DNA from: Candidatus Latescibacterota bacterium
GTDB taxonomy: Bacteria > Latescibacterota > UBA2968 > GCA-2709665
Reading direction: 5' to 3'
DNA length: 64,000 nucleotides
Assembly (NCBI GenBank): GCA_965219995.1
Contig: CBDCOX010000002.1
Location: 4,192,001-4,256,000, forward strand
Shown here: piece by piece, positions 23,910-55,774 of the stretch
Layout: each line of letters starts with the position of its first letter
Position numbering within the stretch: position 1 is the first letter of the stretch
The notes under the pieces: generated by a model
The model's input: the letters and a program-made list of their open reading frames with translations, nothing else
What the model was told of the DNA's origin: nothing
The model's database searches: none
Position numbers and translations under genes: made by a program

Positions 23910-26900
23910 ATGACCATAATCAAGTCACTTGAGCGAACCGGCACCTGGCGGACATACTCCGTCGCCGATGGCCTGCCGGGTGTCCGCATCGAACATATCG
24001 CCGAAGACAGCCAGGGATATATCTGGATTGCCACCTCGGACAACGGCGCCAGCCGTTTTGACGGGGACGATTTCCGCACGTTTACCCAACAGGACGGGCT
24101 TTGTGGCAATCGGGTCTTTTTCATTCACAGAGACCGTCAGGAGAAATTGTGGTTTGCCACCATTAATGGCGTTTGCTGGTACGATGGCGCCTCCTTCCAT
24201 CATTTGGAGGACGACGGCATCGCCGGACGCTCCGTCGAGTTTCTCTATGAAGATCGGCAGGGCCGTATATGGTGTGGTGGTTCCGGCACTCTGGGGTATT
24301 ACGACGGTACGGCTTTCCACGACATGATCCCCCTCTACTTGCAACACTACCGGCAGCCACCATCGCCTCAGTGGCCCAGCCTGTGTCGGGGCATTGCCCA
24401 GGATCGCGAAGGACATCTGTGGTTTGGTTTTAATTATCTCATCCGCTACGACGGTAAATCCTTCCACCGTTACGAAGAGGAAGACGGTTTCCCCCAGGTT
24501 CACATCAGCTACATCCTGGGGCAGGGCCCTGCGGGCAACGTGTGGATAAACATGCCGCGAGATCGAGGCATTCTTCATTACCCTGCGAGTGGCGCGTTTC
24601 AGTCTTTTCAGGTAGACCTGACTGGCGGCCTCCGCAAGATTCAATGCGACCGGGACGGAAGGGCGTGGCTCTGCACCTCGCAAGAAGCGCTCTACGAGGA
24701 CGTCGACGGGTTCAACAGGTTCACGCCTGACGATGGCCTGCCCCATCCCATCGTCAAAGCCATGTTCCACGACCACGAGGATCGGTTCTGGTTCGCCACG
24801 TGGGGTGGTGTCGGGGTTTACGATGCACATGGTATAAGCGTGTTCGACCTCGGCGCGCAGCGCCCCGAAAACACGGGCGCGGTCTCGCAAATTGTGCAGG
24901 ACCGGCGAGGGGACTTGTGGATCGGGTACGCGTCTCCCTATCTCTTTCCCAACAAGAAAAGCGTCGGCCGCCTGGAGGGCGATCGCCTCGTACGTGTAGA
25001 GACCGAACGTGGTCTTGAAATTGGTAACTGTTTCGCGATTCACGAGGACCTTGACGGAGACCTGTGGTTTGGCGGTCATAGGGGCCTTTTCCGCTACGAC
25101 GGACAGCAAATGAAGGAAGAAGAACCAATCTCATGCGTACGAGGAAAGAACGTCTGCGCAATCGCACAGGATCATAGTGGAAAATTTATTTTGGGGTATT
25201 GGGAAGGCGGCCCGAAGTCATTGGATGGGCTCTATACCAGCCCACTGAAGATCGTCTACCAATGGGGCGGGCAGTTCCGGACGATTTTTGTGGAGGACGA
25301 CAAGAAAGTCCCGTACGGCCGCATTGGTGCTGTGGTCGCCACGCGCCGAAACGAGCTCTACTTCCATTTGACAGGTGGCGATAGCCTGGCAAGCGGCACC
25401 GGCCTGGCTCGCTGGCATCCCGATGATGGCCTGACATTTTATGGGATCGAAGACGATCTGATAGACAACAACGTCACGGACTTGCTGTTGGACCGGCATG
25501 AAAACCTGTGGATCGCCACTGCGAATGGACTCAGTCGTTTTGACGGCAGCGCATTCCGCACCTTCACAACCGAAGACGGGCTGCCGAACGACCACGTCCG
25601 GTGCCTGTATGAGGACCGGCGCGGACACCTCTGGCTCGGTACTCACGCCGGCGTGGCTCACTACGACGGCCGGCTCTTCCAGACCGTCAACTCACCGCAT
25701 ATAGGACTGGTCTACCGGATACTTGAAGATCGCGACGGAACTTTCTGGTTTGGCACGGCAACCGGTTCCGTGATACGATACCGTCTGCGGCAGACGCCAC
25801 CCCGGATTCGACTGCTTCAGGTTATTGCGGATCGTGTCTATAAGGCCTCGGAGGAAGTCATCCATTCCACCCCGGACCAGCAGGTGGTGTTCGAGTACGC
25901 GGGCAGGAGTTTTTCCACCCCTTCCTCCGACATGCTCTACATCTACCGGCTGAACGGACACGACCCCGATTGGCAGCGTGCGTCCAGGGACAGGCGGGCC
26001 TATTATCGTGACCTGCCGCCTGGAGAATACACCTTCCAGGTAAGGGCCGTGGATCGTGACCTCAATTACTCCAGGATAGCGCAAACGCGGCTTTCGGTAC
26101 AGCCCGACCCGCGTATCGAGGCTCTGACCATTGCGCTCAACAGCCAGGAAAACCGGAAATTCATCGGTCAGAGCACAACCATGCGAGAATTCCAAATCAA
26201 GCTGAGACGCGTGGCGGACACGGACACCAGCGTTCTGATTATGGGCGAAACGGGTGTGGGCAAAGGACTGGCTGCGCGGGCGCTGCATGCCCTCAGCGGC
26301 AATCGCGATGGGCCCTTTATGCAGGTCAACTGCGGCGCTTTGCCGGAGGGGCTGATCGACAGCGAGCTCTTCGGTCACGAAAGAGGCGCTTTCACCGGAG
26401 CCGTTTCCCGCCGGCTGGGCAAGGTGGAACTCGCCACGGGCGGCACGCTCTTTCTGGATGAGATCGGCGATATGTCTCTGGAAACGCAGGCCAGATTGCT
26501 GCGAATCCTGGAAGAGAAGACCTTTGAGCGAGTTGGGGGCAGCCGGACGCTGACACTGCAGACGCGGATTGTGGCGGCGACCAATCGCGATCTGGAGTTG
26601 ATGGTCATCGCTGGTGATCTCCGCGAGGATCTCTACTACCGCTTTCAGGCCTTTCCACTGCGATTGCCACCCCTGCGTGAGCGCCTGGAGGATATACCCC
26701 TCCTGGCCGACTATTTCAAGGATCGAATGGCGGCGCATCTGGGCAGGCGGATCGGCGCCCTGCCGCCGGAGATCATCGAGGAGTTGCAAGCCTGCGACTG
26801 GCCGGGGAACGTACGTGAGCTGGAGCACGCCATGCAGCGTGCCGTCATCGCGTGCCAGGGTTCTCAGATTGGAATGGAAGACCTCGGACTTCGTGAGATT

Positions 26901-27140
26901 GGCGCCCGACCTGGACTCCCGGCGCTTCCATTGACAGGATCCCTGCCCGCTTCTCCGGACTTCGAACTCATACCTCTGGATGAACTTGAACGCCGCTACA
27001 TTCTTGCAGTGCTCGAGGCGACCCGCTGGAAGATCAAGGGGAACGGCGGCGCGGCGGCGCGGCTGGGTTTGCCGTCTTCGACGCTGTATAGCCGTATGAA
27101 GAAACTGGGCATCGAACGAGCAAGTCGTTCAGCTGGTTGA
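23910..27140 (+). CDS. sigma54-dependent activator with N-terminal Reg_prop beta-propeller and Y_Y_Y domains
   Basis: Repeated DGL...I.ED..G.LWF; YIYRLNG...YRDLPPGEYTFQVRAVD; [23 protein letters not shown]-terminal Fis HTH. Confidence 0.9.
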   Translation: MTIIKSLERTGTWRTYSVADGLPGVRIEHIAEDSQGYIWIATSDNGASRFDGDDFRTFTQQDGLCGNRVFFIHRDRQEKLWFATINGVCWYDGASFHHLEDDGIAGRSVEFLYEDRQGRIWCGGSGTLGYYDGTAFHDMIPLYLQHYRQPPSPQWPSLCRGIAQDREGHLWFGFNYLIRYDGKSFHRYEEEDGFPQVHISYILGQGPAGNVWINMPRDRGILHYPASGAFQSFQVDLTGGLRKIQCDRDGRAWLCTSQEALYEDVDGFNRFTPDDGLPHPIVKAMFHDHEDRFWFATWGGVGVYDAHGISVFDLGAQRPENTGAVSQIVQDRRGDLWIGYASPYLFPNKKSVGRLEGDRLVRVETERGLEIGNCFAIHEDLDGDLWFGGHRGLFRYDGQQMKEEEPISCVRGKNVCAIAQDHSGKFILGYWEGGPKSLDGLYTSPLKIVYQWGGQFRTIFVEDDKKVPYGRIGAVVATRRNELYFHLTGGDSLASGTGLARWHPDDGLTFYGIEDDLIDNNVTDLLLDRHENLWIATANGLSRFDGSAFRTFTTEDGLPNDHVRCLYEDRRGHLWLGTHAGVAHYDGRLFQTVNSPHIGLVYRILEDRDGTFWFGTATGSVIRYRLRQTPPRIRLLQVIADRVYKASEEVIHSTPDQQVVFEYAGRSFSTPSSDMLYIYRLNGHDPDWQRASRDRRAYYRDLPPGEYTFQVRAVDRDLNYSRIAQTRLSVQPDPRIEALTIALNSQENRKFIGQSTTMREFQIKLRRVADTDTSVLIMGETGVGKGLAARALHALSGNRDGPFMQVNCGALPEGLIDSELFGHERGAFTGAVSRRLGKVELATGGTLFLDEIGDMSLETQARLLRILEEKTFERVGGSRTLTLQTRIVAATNRDLELMVIAGDLREDLYYRFQAFPLRLPPLRERLEDIPLLADYFKDRMAAHLGRRIGALPPEIIEELQACDWPGNVRELEHAMQRAVIACQGSQIGMEDLGLREIGARPGLPALPLTGSLPASPDFELIPLDELERRYILAVLEATRWKIKGNGGAAARLGLPSSTLYSRMKKLGIERASRSAG

Positions 27141-27213
27141 AGCTGCTGCGCCGGCTGATCAGGCCCGGAGGTCTCGGCTTCCGGCTCGGATGACGGCGTC
27201 CGCCGACCCTCCG

Positions 27214-27345
27214 TAAAGGGCGATATATCGACAAGGACGATATATCGCCCTTTATTCATAAATAACTGTTTTTTTTTGGTAATAAACGAGCCAGGCTGAG
27301 TTATTGGACGAAATATCGCCCAATAATGATCGGCCTGGCTCGTTT
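27214..27345. promoter_or_regulatory. candidate upstream activator sequences (three CGAWATATCG boxes in two long inverted repeats)
   Basis: CGATATATCG at 27221 and 27238 within TAAAGGG...CCCTTTA; CGAAATATCG at 27309 centred in AAACGAGCCAGGC...GCCTGGCTCGTTT. Confidence 0.6.
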
Positions 27346-27421
27346 TGTTGTGTGCCTTGAAGTATTCCTAACCTCTATTAAAACAGCATGTTACGAGATA
27401 TTTTTTTCAGTGCGATACACG

Positions 27422-27436
27422 TGGCACAGGTATTGC
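27422..27436 (+). promoter_or_regulatory. sigma54 -24/-12 promoter
   Basis: TGGCAC-AGGTA-TTGC matches the consensus exactly. Confidence 0.8.
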
Positions 27437-27618
27437 CCTTGTAAGAATGCGTTTCATTCATCCGACCCGACCGGGACCCGCGCCGCGATCGCCTTCGACG
27501 CATGCGTACGGGTTCACCCTCACGCCGCATCCGGATGTTTCCGAGGGCGACCGGCTCGGGCTACCCATCTCAAGGCATTTGAGCCGGTAAGAGACGAATA
27601 CAGACGAGGGATGTCAAA

Positions 27619-30324
27619 ATGGGCAAAATCCGAGCTGCCGCCACCAGGAACCGCCAGACACTTTCGTTCGCCGTTCCATTCGCCGCGGCCGTGTTGCTGT
27701 TTCTATGGGTGCTGATCGCGCCATGGTCGTCTTCTTCGCAGTCCAGCGGCTTTTCGCTGACTCTGGATCTGGATGATGCCGAGGGCGACCAGTCTGTATC
27801 CTCCCTGGACGTGGCTCCAGGCGAGTTGCTTTCCGTCCAGATCTTCGGCGTGGATATTCAGAGCGCCAAGGGCATCGCCGCACGCATCGCGTTCAACACG
27901 ACACAGGTTGGGTACGTGGGGTTCGACACCGGGAACCTGTTGCCGAGTGCCCATACGCTTGTCGTACAGGATTCGGCCGCGATCCGAATAACCATCTCGT
28001 CATTGAGTGGTTCCGCAGCCACGAATGCAGGATTGCTGGGGACGGTACGGTTTCGTACGACCCCCGCATTTACGGACACGGAGATCTGGCTGGTGCGCGC
28101 CGAGATAACCCGCGGTGGTCGTTCGGAGCAGGGACCGGACGTCGTAGGGGTTGTCCTGGAGGTTCCCGTGCCGCCATCCTCGGACTTTAATGAGAGCGGT
28201 GTTGTTGACTTTGCCGACTTCGTGCTGTTTGCAGGCGCATTTGGATACCGGGAGGGCGACGAGGCATTCGATGGCAGATACGATCTGAACGGCGACGAGG
28301 CGATCGCGTTCGACGATTTCGTCATCTTCGCGAGGAGGTTCGGGGAAGCGGTGAACCGTGCGCCGGTGTTCGCGCACGAGCTCCCGGCGGCGCGCTCCGT
28401 GATTGAGAACGCAGCTGCGGGTCAACCTGTCGGCGAATCCGTCTCGGCCACGGACGCGGACGGCGATGCGCTCCGCTACGAGTTGCGAGGGCCGCACGCG
28501 GACCGGTTCAGCATTGACGCGAGCACGGGTCAGCTGCTGACGAGACAAGGGATTGCCTACGACTATGAGGCGCAGGACGCGTATTCCGTAACCGTGCGTG
28601 TCGTGGACGGCAAGGGGGGGCGCGCGCGTCTCCGGGTCAACATCGCCGTTACGGACGCGGAGGAATCGCCGGGCGCGGCGCCGCCGCAGTTCGTGGTGGA
28701 ATACGGCGACGAAGGTGTGACGGTGCGATGGGTCGCATCGACGGACGAGGCGGGGAAGCCGCCGGTGAGCGGATACGAGGTGCAGCGTCGACAGACCGAT
28801 AGTGACGAATGGACGGACCTGTCGATCCTGGAAAGCCGTGGGGATACGAGCCTCACGCTGACGGATCTGATCAGCGACAAGACGTATGAGGTGCGTGTGC
28901 GGACGCTCAACGAGGATGGCGCCAGCGAATGGTCGGCGCCCATCACCGTAAAGGGACCGTCGCCGCCACCTCCACCGCCGCCACCGCCGCCACCACCACC
29001 TCCAACACCTCCACCGCCACCACCGCCACCACCGCCACCACCTCCGCCACCACCTCCGCCACCACCTCCGCCGCCGGCTTCCCATGGTGTCTGCGGCCGT
29101 ACCGCGCAGGTGCGTGATGCGATCGTCGCGTCGGCAGGGGTAAGCACGTGTAGTGAGGTCACGGCGCAACACCTGGCTGCAATCACAGAACTTCAACTGT
29201 GGAGAAAGGACATTACAACATTGGAGGCCAACGATTTTTCCAATATGGGTGCGCTGGTGACGCTCAACCTGAACTACAACAGAATCAGCAGCCTTCCGGC
29301 CGGCATCTTCTCCCATCTTTCAAAACTCGAAAGACTCTGGCTATTCCGCAACGAACTCACCAGCGTAGATGCGAGTCTCTTTTCCGGTCTTTCAGCACTG
29401 AAGGAGCTTGTACTGGCAGCCAATAAACTCAGCAGCATTGATACCAATCTCTTCTCAAGCCTGCCGAATCTGGAATTGCTACGGCTGGACGAGAATGACC
29501 TCACCAGCGTTGATGCGGATCTCTTCTCGAACTTGCGGAACCTTAAGAAACTCGCCTTGGGTACAAACCACATCAGCAGCCTGGATGCGAATATCTTCTC
29601 AAATCTGTCGGCGTTGGAGGAACTCAGCCTGTTCGACAACGACATCACCAGCCTGGATGCGAATCTCTTCTCAAGCCTGCGGAACCTGGTGATGCTAAGT
29701 ATCTCGAATAACCCCTTCGGCACTCTGGACTCGAGCATCTTCTTGAATCTGCGGAAACTGGAGTACCTCGGTCTTGCTGATAATGCGCTCGGTAATCTGG
29801 ATGCGGGTCTCATCTCCAGCTTGTCGGCACTGAAGAGACTTCATCTAAGCGGCAATGGAATCAGCAGCCTGGATGCGGGTTTTTTCTCCAATTTTTCCGA
29901 ACTGGAATTCCTGTCATTGAGCCACAACGAATTCAGCTCCCTGCCGGCCGGTCTATTCACCGGGCTGACGTCACTGACAGAGCTTCGCATATATGGGAAT
30001 CCCACCGACCCGTTGCCCATCACAGTTTCTCTCGAGAAGACGGCGGACGGGCAGTTCAAGGCCAAAGCGCACACGGGAGCGCCTTTCAGGATGTCGCTTC
30101 CACTCCAGGTGGTTAATGGTTCGGTCACCGGCGGCGCGGCCAGCATTGTGATATCCCGGGGCAGCCTGGACAGTGACGCTTTGACGGTAACCCGCACGGC
30201 CGGCACTACCGCCGCCGTGACTGTTGACATCGTCTCGCTTCCCGTCCTGCCGGAAAGATACTACGGCATCGCGCTTGTCAAATCGACCGATCTGCCGCTG
30301 CAGATTATCGCGCCGACGCAGTAA
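27619..30324 (+). CDS. modular surface protein: cohesin-like, EF-hand/dockerin-like, cadherin, FN3, poly-Pro, 24-aa LRR
   Basis: N-terminal hydrophobic segment; DFNESGVVDFADF/DLNGDEAIAFDDF; ATDADGD...DYEAQ..Y.VTV; Y.VRVRTLN..G.SEWS; P14-T-P23; LxxLxLxxNxLxxLxxxxF repeats. Confidence 0.85.
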   Translation: MGKIRAAATRNRQTLSFAVPFAAAVLLFLWVLIAPWSSSSQSSGFSLTLDLDDAEGDQSVSSLDVAPGELLSVQIFGVDIQSAKGIAARIAFNTTQVGYVGFDTGNLLPSAHTLVVQDSAAIRITISSLSGSAATNAGLLGTVRFRTTPAFTDTEIWLVRAEITRGGRSEQGPDVVGVVLEVPVPPSSDFNESGVVDFADFVLFAGAFGYREGDEAFDGRYDLNGDEAIAFDDFVIFARRFGEAVNRAPVFAHELPAARSVIENAAAGQPVGESVSATDADGDALRYELRGPHADRFSIDASTGQLLTRQGIAYDYEAQDAYSVTVRVVDGKGGRARLRVNIAVTDAEESPGAAPPQFVVEYGDEGVTVRWVASTDEAGKPPVSGYEVQRRQTDSDEWTDLSILESRGDTSLTLTDLISDKTYEVRVRTLNEDGASEWSAPITVKGPSPPPPPPPPPPPPPPTPPPPPPPPPPPPPPPPPPPPPPPASHGVCGRTAQVRDAIVASAGVSTCSEVTAQHLAAITELQLWRKDITTLEANDFSNMGALVTLNLNYNRISSLPAGIFSHLSKLERLWLFRNELTSVDASLFSGLSALKELVLAANKLSSIDTNLFSSLPNLELLRLDENDLTSVDADLFSNLRNLKKLALGTNHISSLDANIFSNLSALEELSLFDNDITSLDANLFSSLRNLVMLSISNNPFGTLDSSIFLNLRKLEYLGLADNALGNLDAGLISSLSALKRLHLSGNGISSLDAGFFSNFSELEFLSLSHNEFSSLPAGLFTGLTSLTELRIYGNPTDPLPITVSLEKTADGQFKAKAHTGAPFRMSLPLQVVNGSVTGGAASIVISRGSLDSDALTVTRTAGTTAAVTVDIVSLPVLPERYYGIALVKSTDLPLQIIAPTQ
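28963..29076 (+). repeat. poly-proline CCN tract (37 Pro, 1 Thr)
   Basis: CCG/CCA/CCT codons including tandem CCTCCGCCACCA units. Confidence 0.95.
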
Positions 30325-53788: not shown

Positions 53789-55732
53789 TTAATCACTTGC
53801 CTGGTTGTATTTCTTCAGTTTGCGGTGCAGGGTTGCGCGATGGATGCCAAGTGCGTTCGCGGCGCGCGTAACATTGTCGCCGGCAACTTCCAGGGCCAGG
53901 AGCACGGCCTGCCTTTCGACCTCCGCGAGTGAAAGCGACGCCGACCTCTCGAGGTTGTCCTGACTGGACGTAATCGCGGGAGACAGTTGAGGCGGCAGGT
54001 TGCCAGCCTGAATCACCGGGGTTGTCTCCAGCAACACAGCTCGTTCGATGGCATTTTCAAGTTCGCGCACATTGCCGGGCCAATCGTACTGCAGCAGCAG
54101 GCGCAGGGCCGCCGTGGAGATGCCGTCGATGGATTTGTTCAGCCGTTTGGCGAACTTTTCGATGAAATGCTCAACGAGCGCTGGAATGTCCTCCCGCCGT
54201 TCTCTTAAGGGCGGTATCACGATGGGAAATGCCGCGACGCGATAGAACAGGTCTTCGCGGAATTCGCCCGCCTTCACGGCGCGCTCCAGGTCCTTGTTGG
54301 TTGCCGCTATCACCCTGATGTCGACGGATACGGGAGCGGTGCCGCCAATCCGCTGGATTTCGCGCTCCTGCAGAACGCGCAACAACGTGCCCTGAAGCGG
54401 GTAGGGCAGGTCGCCAATTTCGTCGATAAGGATCGTACCTCCGTCCGCGCGTTCGAACGCCCCGACTCTGCGTGTGGTTGCACCGGTGAACGCGCCCTTC
54501 TCGTGTCCGAACAATTCGCTCTCGATCAGCGTTTCGGGAATGGTAGCGCAATCCAACGCCACAAACGGACCATTCTTCCTCAAACTGTTAAAGTGGAATG
54601 ACCTTGCCACGAGTTCTTTTCCGGTACCGCTTTCGCCCTGGATCAGTACCGTAATGTCGCTTTCCGCGGCCTGTTTCATCAGTGCGAACACGGTATGCAT
54701 GACCTTGCTGGTTCCTACCAATCCGGCAAAGGAATACGTTGTTTCCAATTCAGTGCGCAGGCGCTGTACTTCGGCCTTCATCTGCTCGGCGTCGATTGCC
54801 GTGGATACGTCCCGATACAGTACGAGGTTGCCGATGACGTGCCCCAGTTCGTCCGTCACAGGCGCGGTTGAGCGGTAGAACAGGCGCTGCCCGGGCAGTC
54901 CGCCGGCGCCGGTTGTTTCCACGACGTCTTCGCCGTCGAGAGGAAGACTGCCGTCGGTGCCGCCCAGGTCAGGTTTCCTGAACCGTTCCTTGAAACGCGC
55001 CAGGAGATCGTCCGGCGAAATCTCCCCCAGTTCGATATCCTCCAGACCCATGAGTTGCTCGTACATTCCATTGGCGAATACCAGACGTTCTGAGACGTCC
55101 TGCATTGCAATGGCATCGCCCGTGGCATTCAGGACTGCTTCGAGTCTTAAATGGCTGGTGGCAAGTTGCCGCCTTTGTTTCGCGAATTCCTGTTCGATGT
55201 TCCACTTTCCAACCAGCGACAAGGTGATTTGCTGAATCTCCTCGTGGGTGAAGGGTTTTCTGATATAGAGGAGCTTGTGCAGTAATTCCATGTCATAGAC
55301 GATCTCAGGCAGAGACATATCGGTATACGCCGTCATAATGACGATTTCAATGTCGCGATCGATTTCTCTCACCCTACGCACCGTTTCGATGCCATCGATT
55401 CCAGGGGGCATTCGAATATCTATATAGGCGACGGCAACGGGTCGATTCGATTCCTTGCCCTCCCGGATAATGTTGTATGCTTCCTCTCCATTGTTCGCGT
55501 GCATCAATTCGAACTCCGGAAGATAACGCCCTTCCTGCTCGCGGACGAATGCAACCGCCAGATCGTCAGCCGAGCGGCTCGCAATACCGGAACACAGCAT
55601 TTCTGCAAAGTCGTCGTGTATCTCGGGCTGATCGTCGACAATCAGTACCCGTTTGTTTCCGTGATTAAATGTTTCCATCGACCACCCTGGTCCCCGACCG
55701 GTTGACAAGCTATCTGAAAACGGAGCATCCAT
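53789..55732 (-). CDS. sigma54-dependent response regulator (REC-PAS-AAA+-HTH)
   Basis: LIVDD, DIRMPPG, PAS segment, [40 protein letters not shown]. Confidence 0.92.
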
Positions 55733-55758: not shown

Positions 55759-55774
55759 TGCACAATTTGTGCCA
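55759..55774 (-). promoter_or_regulatory. sigma54 -24/-12 promoter
   Basis: Minus strand TGGCAC-AAATT-GTGCA, just upstream of the regulator ATG. Confidence 0.6.

Follow-up and report, generated by a model that had tools for sequence, protein, structure and literature searches.

A candidate one-component sigma-54 gene switch with a propeller-type sensor, upstream of a eukaryote-like secreted protein in Latescibacterota

We analyzed a 64,000-nt stretch of DNA, hereafter the window, from a Candidatus Latescibacterota bacterium whose genome comprises 5.44 Mb in two contigs at 60.7% G+C; the window corresponds to C2:4,192,001–4,256,000, and positions without the prefix C2 are counted from its first letter. 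Within it, an activator gene is followed by three palindromic boxes, a −24/−12 site and a gene for a repeat-rich secreted protein. Judged from its sequence features and their conservation, this locus is likely to be a one-component sigma-54-dependent gene switch. Comparison with relatives supports assigning the boxes and the −24/−12 site as putative enhancer and promoter, and supports the view that the activator gene, the palindromic boxes and the −24/−12 site form a conserved unit.

The activator gene (23910–27140, + strand) is a 1076-aa open reading frame (ORF) that encodes a predicted cytoplasmic sensor, a sigma-54 AAA+ domain, an AAA lid and a Fis-type helix-turn-helix (HTH). Five Pfam domains were recognized, all scoring over their cut-offs. 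Reg_prop propellers (PF07494, 146.6 bits) and Y_Y_Y (PF07495, 45.7 bits) make up the sensor (residues ~1–730), Sigma54_activat (PF00158, 216.1 bits, cut-off 20.2) spans residues 752–917 (nt 26163–26660), and AAA_lid_14 (75.9 bits) and HTH_8 (PF02954, 31.3 bits, cut-off 22; residues 1023–1066, nt 26976–27107) complete the protein. The AAA+ part carries a Walker A motif (GETGVGKG at residue 779), the GAFTGA loop (residues 826–831, nt 26385–26402) and a Walker B motif (LFLDE at residue 847). Histidine kinase, receiver and AraC output domains were absent among the 11 Pfam families that matched the activator at E ≤ 0.001. Hydropathy in 19-residue windows peaked at 0.87, with no window above 1.6; with no hydrophobic stretch of this kind, the protein and its sensor are expected to lie entirely in the cytoplasm. 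In sequence searches of the PDB, the AAA+ part was nearest to the solved domains of NtrC, FleQ, FlrA, NifA and ZraR (E values of 1e-72 to 1e-74 for NtrC, FleQ and ZraR), and the N-terminal part was nearest to Bacteroides hybrid-sensor domains (3v9f, E 1.1e-38; 4a2l, E 9.4e-37). None of the NCBIfam equivalogs reached its cut-off, the best being FhlA with 319.7 bits against 830 required. In its sequence, the 1076-aa protein carries every hallmark of a bacterial enhancer-binding protein.

Three 14-bp palindromes fitting GnCGAWATATCGnC follow the activator stop codon. Distal box 1 (GGCGATATATCGAC, 27219–27232), with one mismatched pair, and distal box 2 (GACGATATATCGCC, 27236–27249) are centered at about −222 and −205 from the predicted transcription start, and proximal box 3 (GACGAAATATCGCC, 27307–27320) begins 115 nt before TGGCAC, with its center near −134. 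Their 10-bp cores, CGATATATCG at 27221 and 27238 and CGAAATATCG at 27309, stand 201, 184 and 113 nt before the promoter. The CGAWATATCG pattern has five strand matches in the window, a number reached in none of 100 shuffles. The −24/−12 element itself (TGGCACAGGTATTGC, 27422–27436, + strand) reads TGGCAC-AGGTA-TTGC, with GG and GC ten bases apart, and lies 182 nt before the ATG of the target gene; it is the single match to TGGCAC-N5-TTGC in the window. Taking the C of TTGC as −12 places the predicted start near 27448 and gives a predicted 5′ leader of ~170 nt (27448–27618, + strand). An A/T-rich block (TATTAAAACAGCATGTTACGAG, 27377–27398, + strand, center near −60) stands between boxes and promoter; it is conserved and is a candidate bending site for a protein of the integration host factor (IHF)/HU type, matching seven of the nine specified positions of the Escherichia coli IHF consensus. 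No sigma-70-like site was found in 26900–27800. A sequence-only reading of this DNA had described the activator with an intact GAFTGA, three CGAWATATCG boxes roughly 100–200 bp before a perfect promoter at 27422–27436, and a 901-aa mosaic protein behind it, and all four are present as described.

In a related strain sequenced in a different study, one contig spans 27025–28400 with 81 differences and five gaps, so that strain keeps the arrangement. In four other sequencing runs, contigs from X5, X6 and X9 cover part or all of the cassette, and the pieces from X8 fall only on the flanking genes; X6 and X8 are labeled sponge metagenome. None of the 18 runs listed for the locus is recorded as RNA.

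The cassette recurs within the same genome. At C2:2,879,841–2,880,066, paired boxes, a third box and a perfect promoter are found with 70% identity over 275 bp to the DNA of the window. The two copies agree at 30/30 positions in the box cores, 25/26 in the arms of a long hairpin described below, 7/7 in the T-run behind it, 14/15 in the −24/−12 element and 14/19 in the A/T block; outside these elements, identity is 23–54% in the spacers and 41–43% in the flanks. The leader matches at 25/39 positions over 27437–27475 and 60/146 over 27476–27618, its first ~30 nt being partly common to both copies. The second cassette has no activator gene upstream and precedes a gene for an 896-aa WD40 protein with a dockerin, which shares with the first target only a 70-aa dockerin-like stretch (50% identity). 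The window activator most likely also drives this WD40/dockerin gene. A third, weaker set on the minus strand (C2:2,253,036–2,253,213) consists of boxes, an A/T block and TGGCAC-N5-GTGC. It is divergent from a paralogous activator gene (C2:2,253,299; 1065 aa, loop GAFTNA) whose product is 54% identical to the window activator in the sensor and 64% in the C-terminal part, and its boxes share the CGAT core. The stretch behind this third sigma-54 motif holds no convincing ORF before the first sizeable gene ~600 nt away, which encodes a 254-aa receiver and AraC-type regulator (L003:6678–7442, minus strand; C2:2,251,678–2,252,442). Since identical boxes stand before a second, unrelated gene and a paralogue has similar ones, the module is not self-contained, contrary to what had been proposed; the proposed pairing of enhancer and promoter held up as a conserved unit through the second cassette, the paralogues and box co-variation described below, and the presence of rpoN. 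The genome has one rpoN (Sigma54_DBD, 200 bits, C2:884528–885001, within an open frame of 493 aa), 14 strong Sigma54_activat genes and four genes of the HU/IHF family. Of the sigma-54 motifs in the genome, an activator AAA+ domain is found no more than 3 kb away for 3 of the 16 strict ones (0.27 expected by chance) and for 8 of the 39 relaxed ones (0.65 expected).

The linkage extends across the family. Among relatives, 68 full-length activator frames were collected, 60 of them distinct, and all paralogue counts refer to these 60; the promoter pattern was TGG[CT]A[CT]-N5-[TG]TGC, sought up to 450 nt after the stop codon on the downstream side, and we estimate its chance rate at less than 0.01 per region. 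A co-directional sigma-54 motif was present within this distance in 34 paralogues, and a divergent motif 90–370 nt upstream in 18, being the sole site for 15 of these. A motif was therefore found downstream or divergent beside 49/60 paralogues. Among the 11 with neither arrangement, three have only a same-strand upstream site, left by the preceding cassette, and eight have none; decayed or interrupted cassettes are visible among those eight (L009 and L010). Alignment of 51 promoter-anchored cassettes gave the consensus TCAcaT-TGGCAC-N5-TTGCA, with an A-rich block (aaAAaAA..a..tT) 30–45 nt before TGGCAC. The GAFTGA loop varies within the family: GAFTSA in 35 paralogues, GAFTGA in 13, GAFASA in six, GAFTNA in three, GSFTSA and GAFTTA in one each, and none found in one; most sister-genus copies read GAFTSA. 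In the clade of six GAFASA paralogues (L008–L011, L049 and L050), an intact downstream promoter is missing in five, and this clade is possibly a decaying or non-activating branch.

In most paralogue cassettes a palindrome starts 112–117 nt before TGGCAC; its sequence varies by paralogue and recurs upstream in the same cassette. In a cognate-box test with an anchored 14-mer, 13/34 cassettes matched their own upstream region (11–14 of 14 positions) better than every unrelated region (means 8.1–9.2), and for several further cassettes just one or two unrelated regions tied. A first version with fixed 60-nt and 115-nt windows was discarded, as the A/T background swamped the signal (self 9.9 versus non-self 9.1 of 12). 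The half-site core was also compared with the HTH residue that follows TL[YF]: Ser goes with CGAT or CGAA, Thr with CGTT (3/3) and Asn with CCGT or CCAT, and Gly after TLY with CCAT, TCAT or CGAT. This comparison is descriptive, as the paralogues are related through their tree and the rows are not independent. A search of 168 phylum genomes for the paired arrangement CGATATATCG-N5-10-CGATATATCG gave 11 sites, spread over nine genomes, and 0 for the reversed control; a sigma-54 motif lies 100–215 nt from 10 of the 11. A motif scan detected a neighboring HTH at four of these paired sites, and all four are of the TLYS type. The expectation that homologs share boxes and a −24/−12 site was thus borne out in part: boxes stand at the same places with sequences of their own, and CGATATATCG itself occurs only with paralogues of the TLYS-HTH type.

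Several observations weigh against reading the locus as a sigma-54 switch. The paralogues are related, so the counts above are not independent events. TGGCAC-N5-TTGC appears at least once in 9 of 100 shuffles of the window, and the 16 perfect copies in the genome are close to the ~13 estimated from base composition; the promoter motif alone is therefore weak evidence. In G136, which among relatives with a cassette is the nearest (78% identity in the sensor, same box type), the −12 element is TTGA rather than TTGC, and four near relatives (L093–L096) have no cassette on the downstream side, the side examined. In 21/34 cassettes at least one unrelated region matched equally well in the cognate-box test; many of these failures trace back to a fixed offset that landed on A/T-rich sequence, or to a differing geometry (L007, L019, L043, L055 and others). 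Gly occurs with three different cores and the recognition helices are very alike among paralogues with differing boxes, so the proposed read-out is incomplete. Both the paired boxes 1 and 2 and the long hairpin fold into very stable stem-loops, which could function as structures in RNA or DNA. Nor is the adjacent target conserved: at that place G009 (68% identical) encodes a PPDK_N-like protein and has an ORF of 154 aa, and its second cassette again precedes a WD40 protein; the target in G136 is a different leucine-rich repeat (LRR) lipoprotein. On these grounds we rejected the 901-aa protein as a conserved target of the activator. What stands behind this box type differs between genomes, the recurring theme being repeat-rich secreted proteins.

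Who binds the boxes is a separate matter. The promoter might be sigma-54-dependent with its boxes bound by another regulator, or be served by one of the other 13 strong Sigma54_activat genes of the genome, leaving the neighboring activator as a co-duplicated bystander. The number of such genes favors this account, as do the closely similar HTH helices of the paralogues and the CGAT core in the boxes of the third set, which makes cross-talk possible. We nevertheless consider it very unlikely, because the boxes change with the adjacent paralogue even among paralogues ~60–65% identical in protein and because every paired CGATATATCG site with a detected neighboring HTH (4 of the 11) stands beside the TLYS type.

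The stem-loops call for a closer look. Pairing between boxes 1 and 2 would give a hairpin in RNA or DNA (−27.3 kcal/mol, z −8.45). The long hairpin (27287–27349, + strand) is formed by arms at 27287–27299 and 27330–27342, holds box 3 in its loop and runs into TTTTGTT (27343–27349) in the manner of a terminator (predicted −41.2 kcal/mol, z −10.46). For neither structure was any of 200 shuffles as stable. The arms, GAGCCAkkCTGA and TCAGmmTGGCTC, and the T-run are kept across paralogue cassettes (L006–L075), divergent ones included, where other DNA is randomized. The inverted repeats could on this basis be transcript structures, with boxes 1 and 2 terminating the activator gene, the long hairpin serving as a second terminator and the target using another promoter. 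However, each box is palindromic on its own, and box 3 lies unpaired with boxes 1 and 2 in the loop, yet keeps the same sequence within each cassette; no activator gene precedes the second cassette or any of the 18 divergent ones; the box core tracks an HTH residue; and 26900–27800 holds no sigma-70-like site. We regard this explanation as highly improbable. The long hairpin must also be more than a terminator of the activator gene, since divergent cassettes, which lie behind no such gene, retain it. A terminator role may well be true alongside the sigma-54 switch, and an insulating terminator is our preferred guess. The terminator scan, with a loop limit of 3–8 nt, did not report this hairpin and is uninformative either way for such a loop. 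Across 27100–27700, leader included, no Rfam family came near its gathering score; four matches (three miRNA-like hairpins and one cis-regulatory family; 20.7–26.9 bits against gathering scores of 62–107) were set aside as chance. The least probable account, that the −24/−12 motif is an unused chance match or relic and a housekeeping sigma factor transcribes the 901-aa gene from an unrecognized promoter, can point to the near-chance motif counts, to promoters so uncharacterized in this phylum that a sigma-70 scan may miss them and to the visible decay of L009 and L010, but the motif keeps its position in 34 cassettes downstream and 18 divergent ones and is 14/15 identical in the second cassette amid spacers that have diverged.

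Under the sigma-54 switch reading, the Fis-type HTH at the C-terminus would hold dimers of the activator on the three palindromes. When the N-terminal sensor receives its signal, inhibition would be lifted and the AAA+ domains could assemble an active ring. Bending of the A/T-rich block, intrinsic or through an IHF/HU-type protein, would bring this ring to sigma-54 holoenzyme in the closed state at 27422–27436, where ATP hydrolysis would open the promoter and start transcription from about 27448 into the gene for the 901-aa secreted protein. An imported fragment of a glycan may be the signal, by analogy with the Bacteroides hybrid sensors, whose fold the sensor shares, and with a few targets of sister paralogues that look glycan-active; this is the weakest step of the proposal.

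The target gene (27619–30324, + strand, ATG at 27619) encodes a 901-aa protein that begins with a signal or anchor, the one hydrophobic segment in its hydropathy profile, followed by a cohesin-like beta domain, a dockerin-like EF-hand pair, cadherin, fn3, a proline run and ~12 LRRs; the C-terminal ~100 aa match no family. Pfam detected LRR_8 (192.6 bits), fn3 and Cadherin. The nearly pure proline run of ~45 residues (446–490, window 28954–29088) links the fn3 and LRR parts. The dockerin-like pair scores slightly below the PF00404 cut-off (21.4 bits, E 2.8e-4, cut-off 22.9), whereas homologous modules in sister targets pass it (31.5 bits in L012, 28.6 in L035 and 26.0 in L007). The ~140 residues before this pair are 48–49% identical to targets of other cassettes. 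A model of this stretch from a three-sequence alignment had a mean predicted local distance difference test score of 52, with ~60–80 over the beta domain, and a Foldseek search with it returned 28 matches at E ≤ 0.001, nearly all cohesin modules among the matches listed (best 7.8e-5, target template modeling score 0.5–0.65). The Pfam Cohesin family gave no match in the target at E ≤ 1. We take this as evidence of moderate strength for a fold like that of cohesins. For the LRR part, the best relatives of solved structure are the animal proteins IGFALS, LRRC15, LGR5, TLR13 and TLR3, and the target is eukaryote-like at the level of sequence likeness. It appears to be monocistronic: the next real gene, for an S49 peptidase, is convergent, and no simple terminator was found behind the target stop codon.

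The targets of sister paralogues were surveyed by a domain scan of 23 first ORFs behind paralogue promoters. Dockerin_1 was present in six, and many carry LRR, cadherin, fn3, Calx-beta, NHL, low-density lipoprotein receptor class B or immunoglobulin-like domains. Other ORFs resemble a PL8 lyase, a GH2 enzyme, the start of a TonB-dependent receptor or a multicopper oxidase. Complete PL8-like proteins (Lyase_N, Lyase_catalyt, Lyase_8 and Lyase_8_C) lie at L066:4072–7125 and L071:4058–7153, where the paralogue boxes read ACGTTATAACGT. A 128-aa ORF behind another paralogue promoter (L020:3362–3745, + strand) matches the sigma-54 core-binding domain PF04963 with 38.1 bits. Tandem activator genes occur in L008, L046 and L048, from sister-genus genomes, where the cassette of one drives the next activator gene; these arrays suggest regulatory cascades. 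A further sigma-54 activator gene in the window encodes a 647-aa frame (53789–55732, minus strand; AAA+ domain C2:4246221–4246721). On the same strand and ~40 nt before this frame lies TGGCACAAATTGTGC (55760–55774, minus strand), and by this motif the 647-aa activator may itself be sigma-54-dependent.

At E ≤ 1e-10, relatives of the activator form 1115 clusters, with the same domain set in all 120 listed; named clusters are few and, among those listed, mostly called 'sigma 54-interacting transcriptional regulator' or 'AAA domain-containing protein'. Relatives carrying the gene were deposited as Candidatus Latescibacterota metagenome-assembled genomes (MAGs). The sensor part matches at E ≤ 1e-30 in 95/168 phylum genomes. 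Most full-length near relatives fall into two genera other than that of the window; in the window's own genus the match extends to just 3 of 14 other genomes. Several sister-genus genomes hold at least 7–9 full-length copies each, as lower bounds from 18 candidates scored per genome. The nearest sensor-domain relatives, G136, G146, G133 and G141 (L092–L095; 78–69% identity), belong to another family of the class, and the own-genus copy is 62% identical. This pattern hints at transfer between Latescibacterota lineages or differential loss. A metagenome scan for close orthologues returned nothing usable, its one locus being unrelated at 24% identity.

Classical enhancer-dependent sigma-54 promoters with one-component activators include XylR/Pu, DmpR/Po, NorR/norV and NifA/nifH. 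The window activator shares with these systems an AAA+ domain with a GAFTGA loop, a C-terminal Fis-type HTH and an N-terminal sensor on the same polypeptide with no receiver, and the DNA shares palindromic sites 100–220 nt before the −24/−12 element with an A/T-rich block between. The switch design itself (upstream activating sequence, A/T-rich block, −24/−12) is classical. It differs in that the sensor is a Reg_prop twin propeller with Y_Y_Y rather than V4R, GAF, PAS or a receiver, that one site lies in the loop of a conserved hairpin and that the family has expanded within genomes to many members, whose box sequences differ from one to the next. With the Bacteroides hybrid two-component systems (3v9f, 4a2l/4a2m and 3ott/3va6), the family has in common the Reg_prop and Y_Y_Y sensor, many paralogues per genome and, for some paralogues, adjoining glycan-active genes (PL8 lyase-like, GH2-like and TonB-dependent receptor). 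In contrast to these systems, the activator has no membrane segments, kinase, receiver or AraC domain, its output is a sigma-54 AAA+ domain, and most targets are repeat-rich secreted proteins rather than glycan loci. A literature search, with most subscription journals outside its reach, retrieved no paper on a Reg_prop/sigma-54 fusion, on its expansion or on sigma-54 in Latescibacteria. This agrees with the earlier statement that no system of this architecture has been characterized, except that the protein family already bears the annotation quoted above.

Sponge-associated Latescibacterota MAGs carry LRR, WD40, fn3 and NHL domain proteins, according to PMC12993501, and the targets described here carry the same domains. 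The words 'sigma' and 'dockerin' have no occurrences in that paper; the regulator link and the cohesin- and dockerin-like modules come from the present analysis, and the link of eukaryote-like proteins to a dedicated regulator is new here. As a tentative joint reading, which we hold to be possible but rather doubtful, Latescibacterota would possess an addressable array of dozens of paralogous one-component sigma-54 activators with cytoplasmic sensors that share their fold ancestry with the Bacteroides glycan sensors. Each would be wired to its own variant of a 14-bp operator (GAC-NN-TA.TA-NN-GTC), the inner bases being read largely by the single residue after TLY in the recognition helix. On import of its own distinct fragment derived from the host, each would turn on one neighboring gene, for a secreted eukaryote-like cohesin/dockerin protein or an enzyme that degrades glycans.

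The findings bear on how eukaryote-like surface proteins are controlled in uncultivated symbionts, as such genes (LRR, WD40, cadherin, fn3 and dockerin) here stand behind a promoter type that is tightly off or on. Because each lies beside a dedicated sensor-activator, the question can be tested in a heterologous host, with no need to culture the bacterium itself. In Bacteroides, the Reg_prop/Y_Y_Y sensor is familiar from periplasmic sensors of glycans; here it is predicted to be cytoplasmic with a sigma-54 output. For the family, natural activator/operator pairs with differing boxes and a candidate one-residue determinant are relevant to how a Fis-type HTH reads DNA. If the array reading is true, it would be the first regulatory logic proposed for the eukaryote-like proteins of sponge symbionts and would provide a natural set of orthogonal sigma-54 activator/operator pairs.

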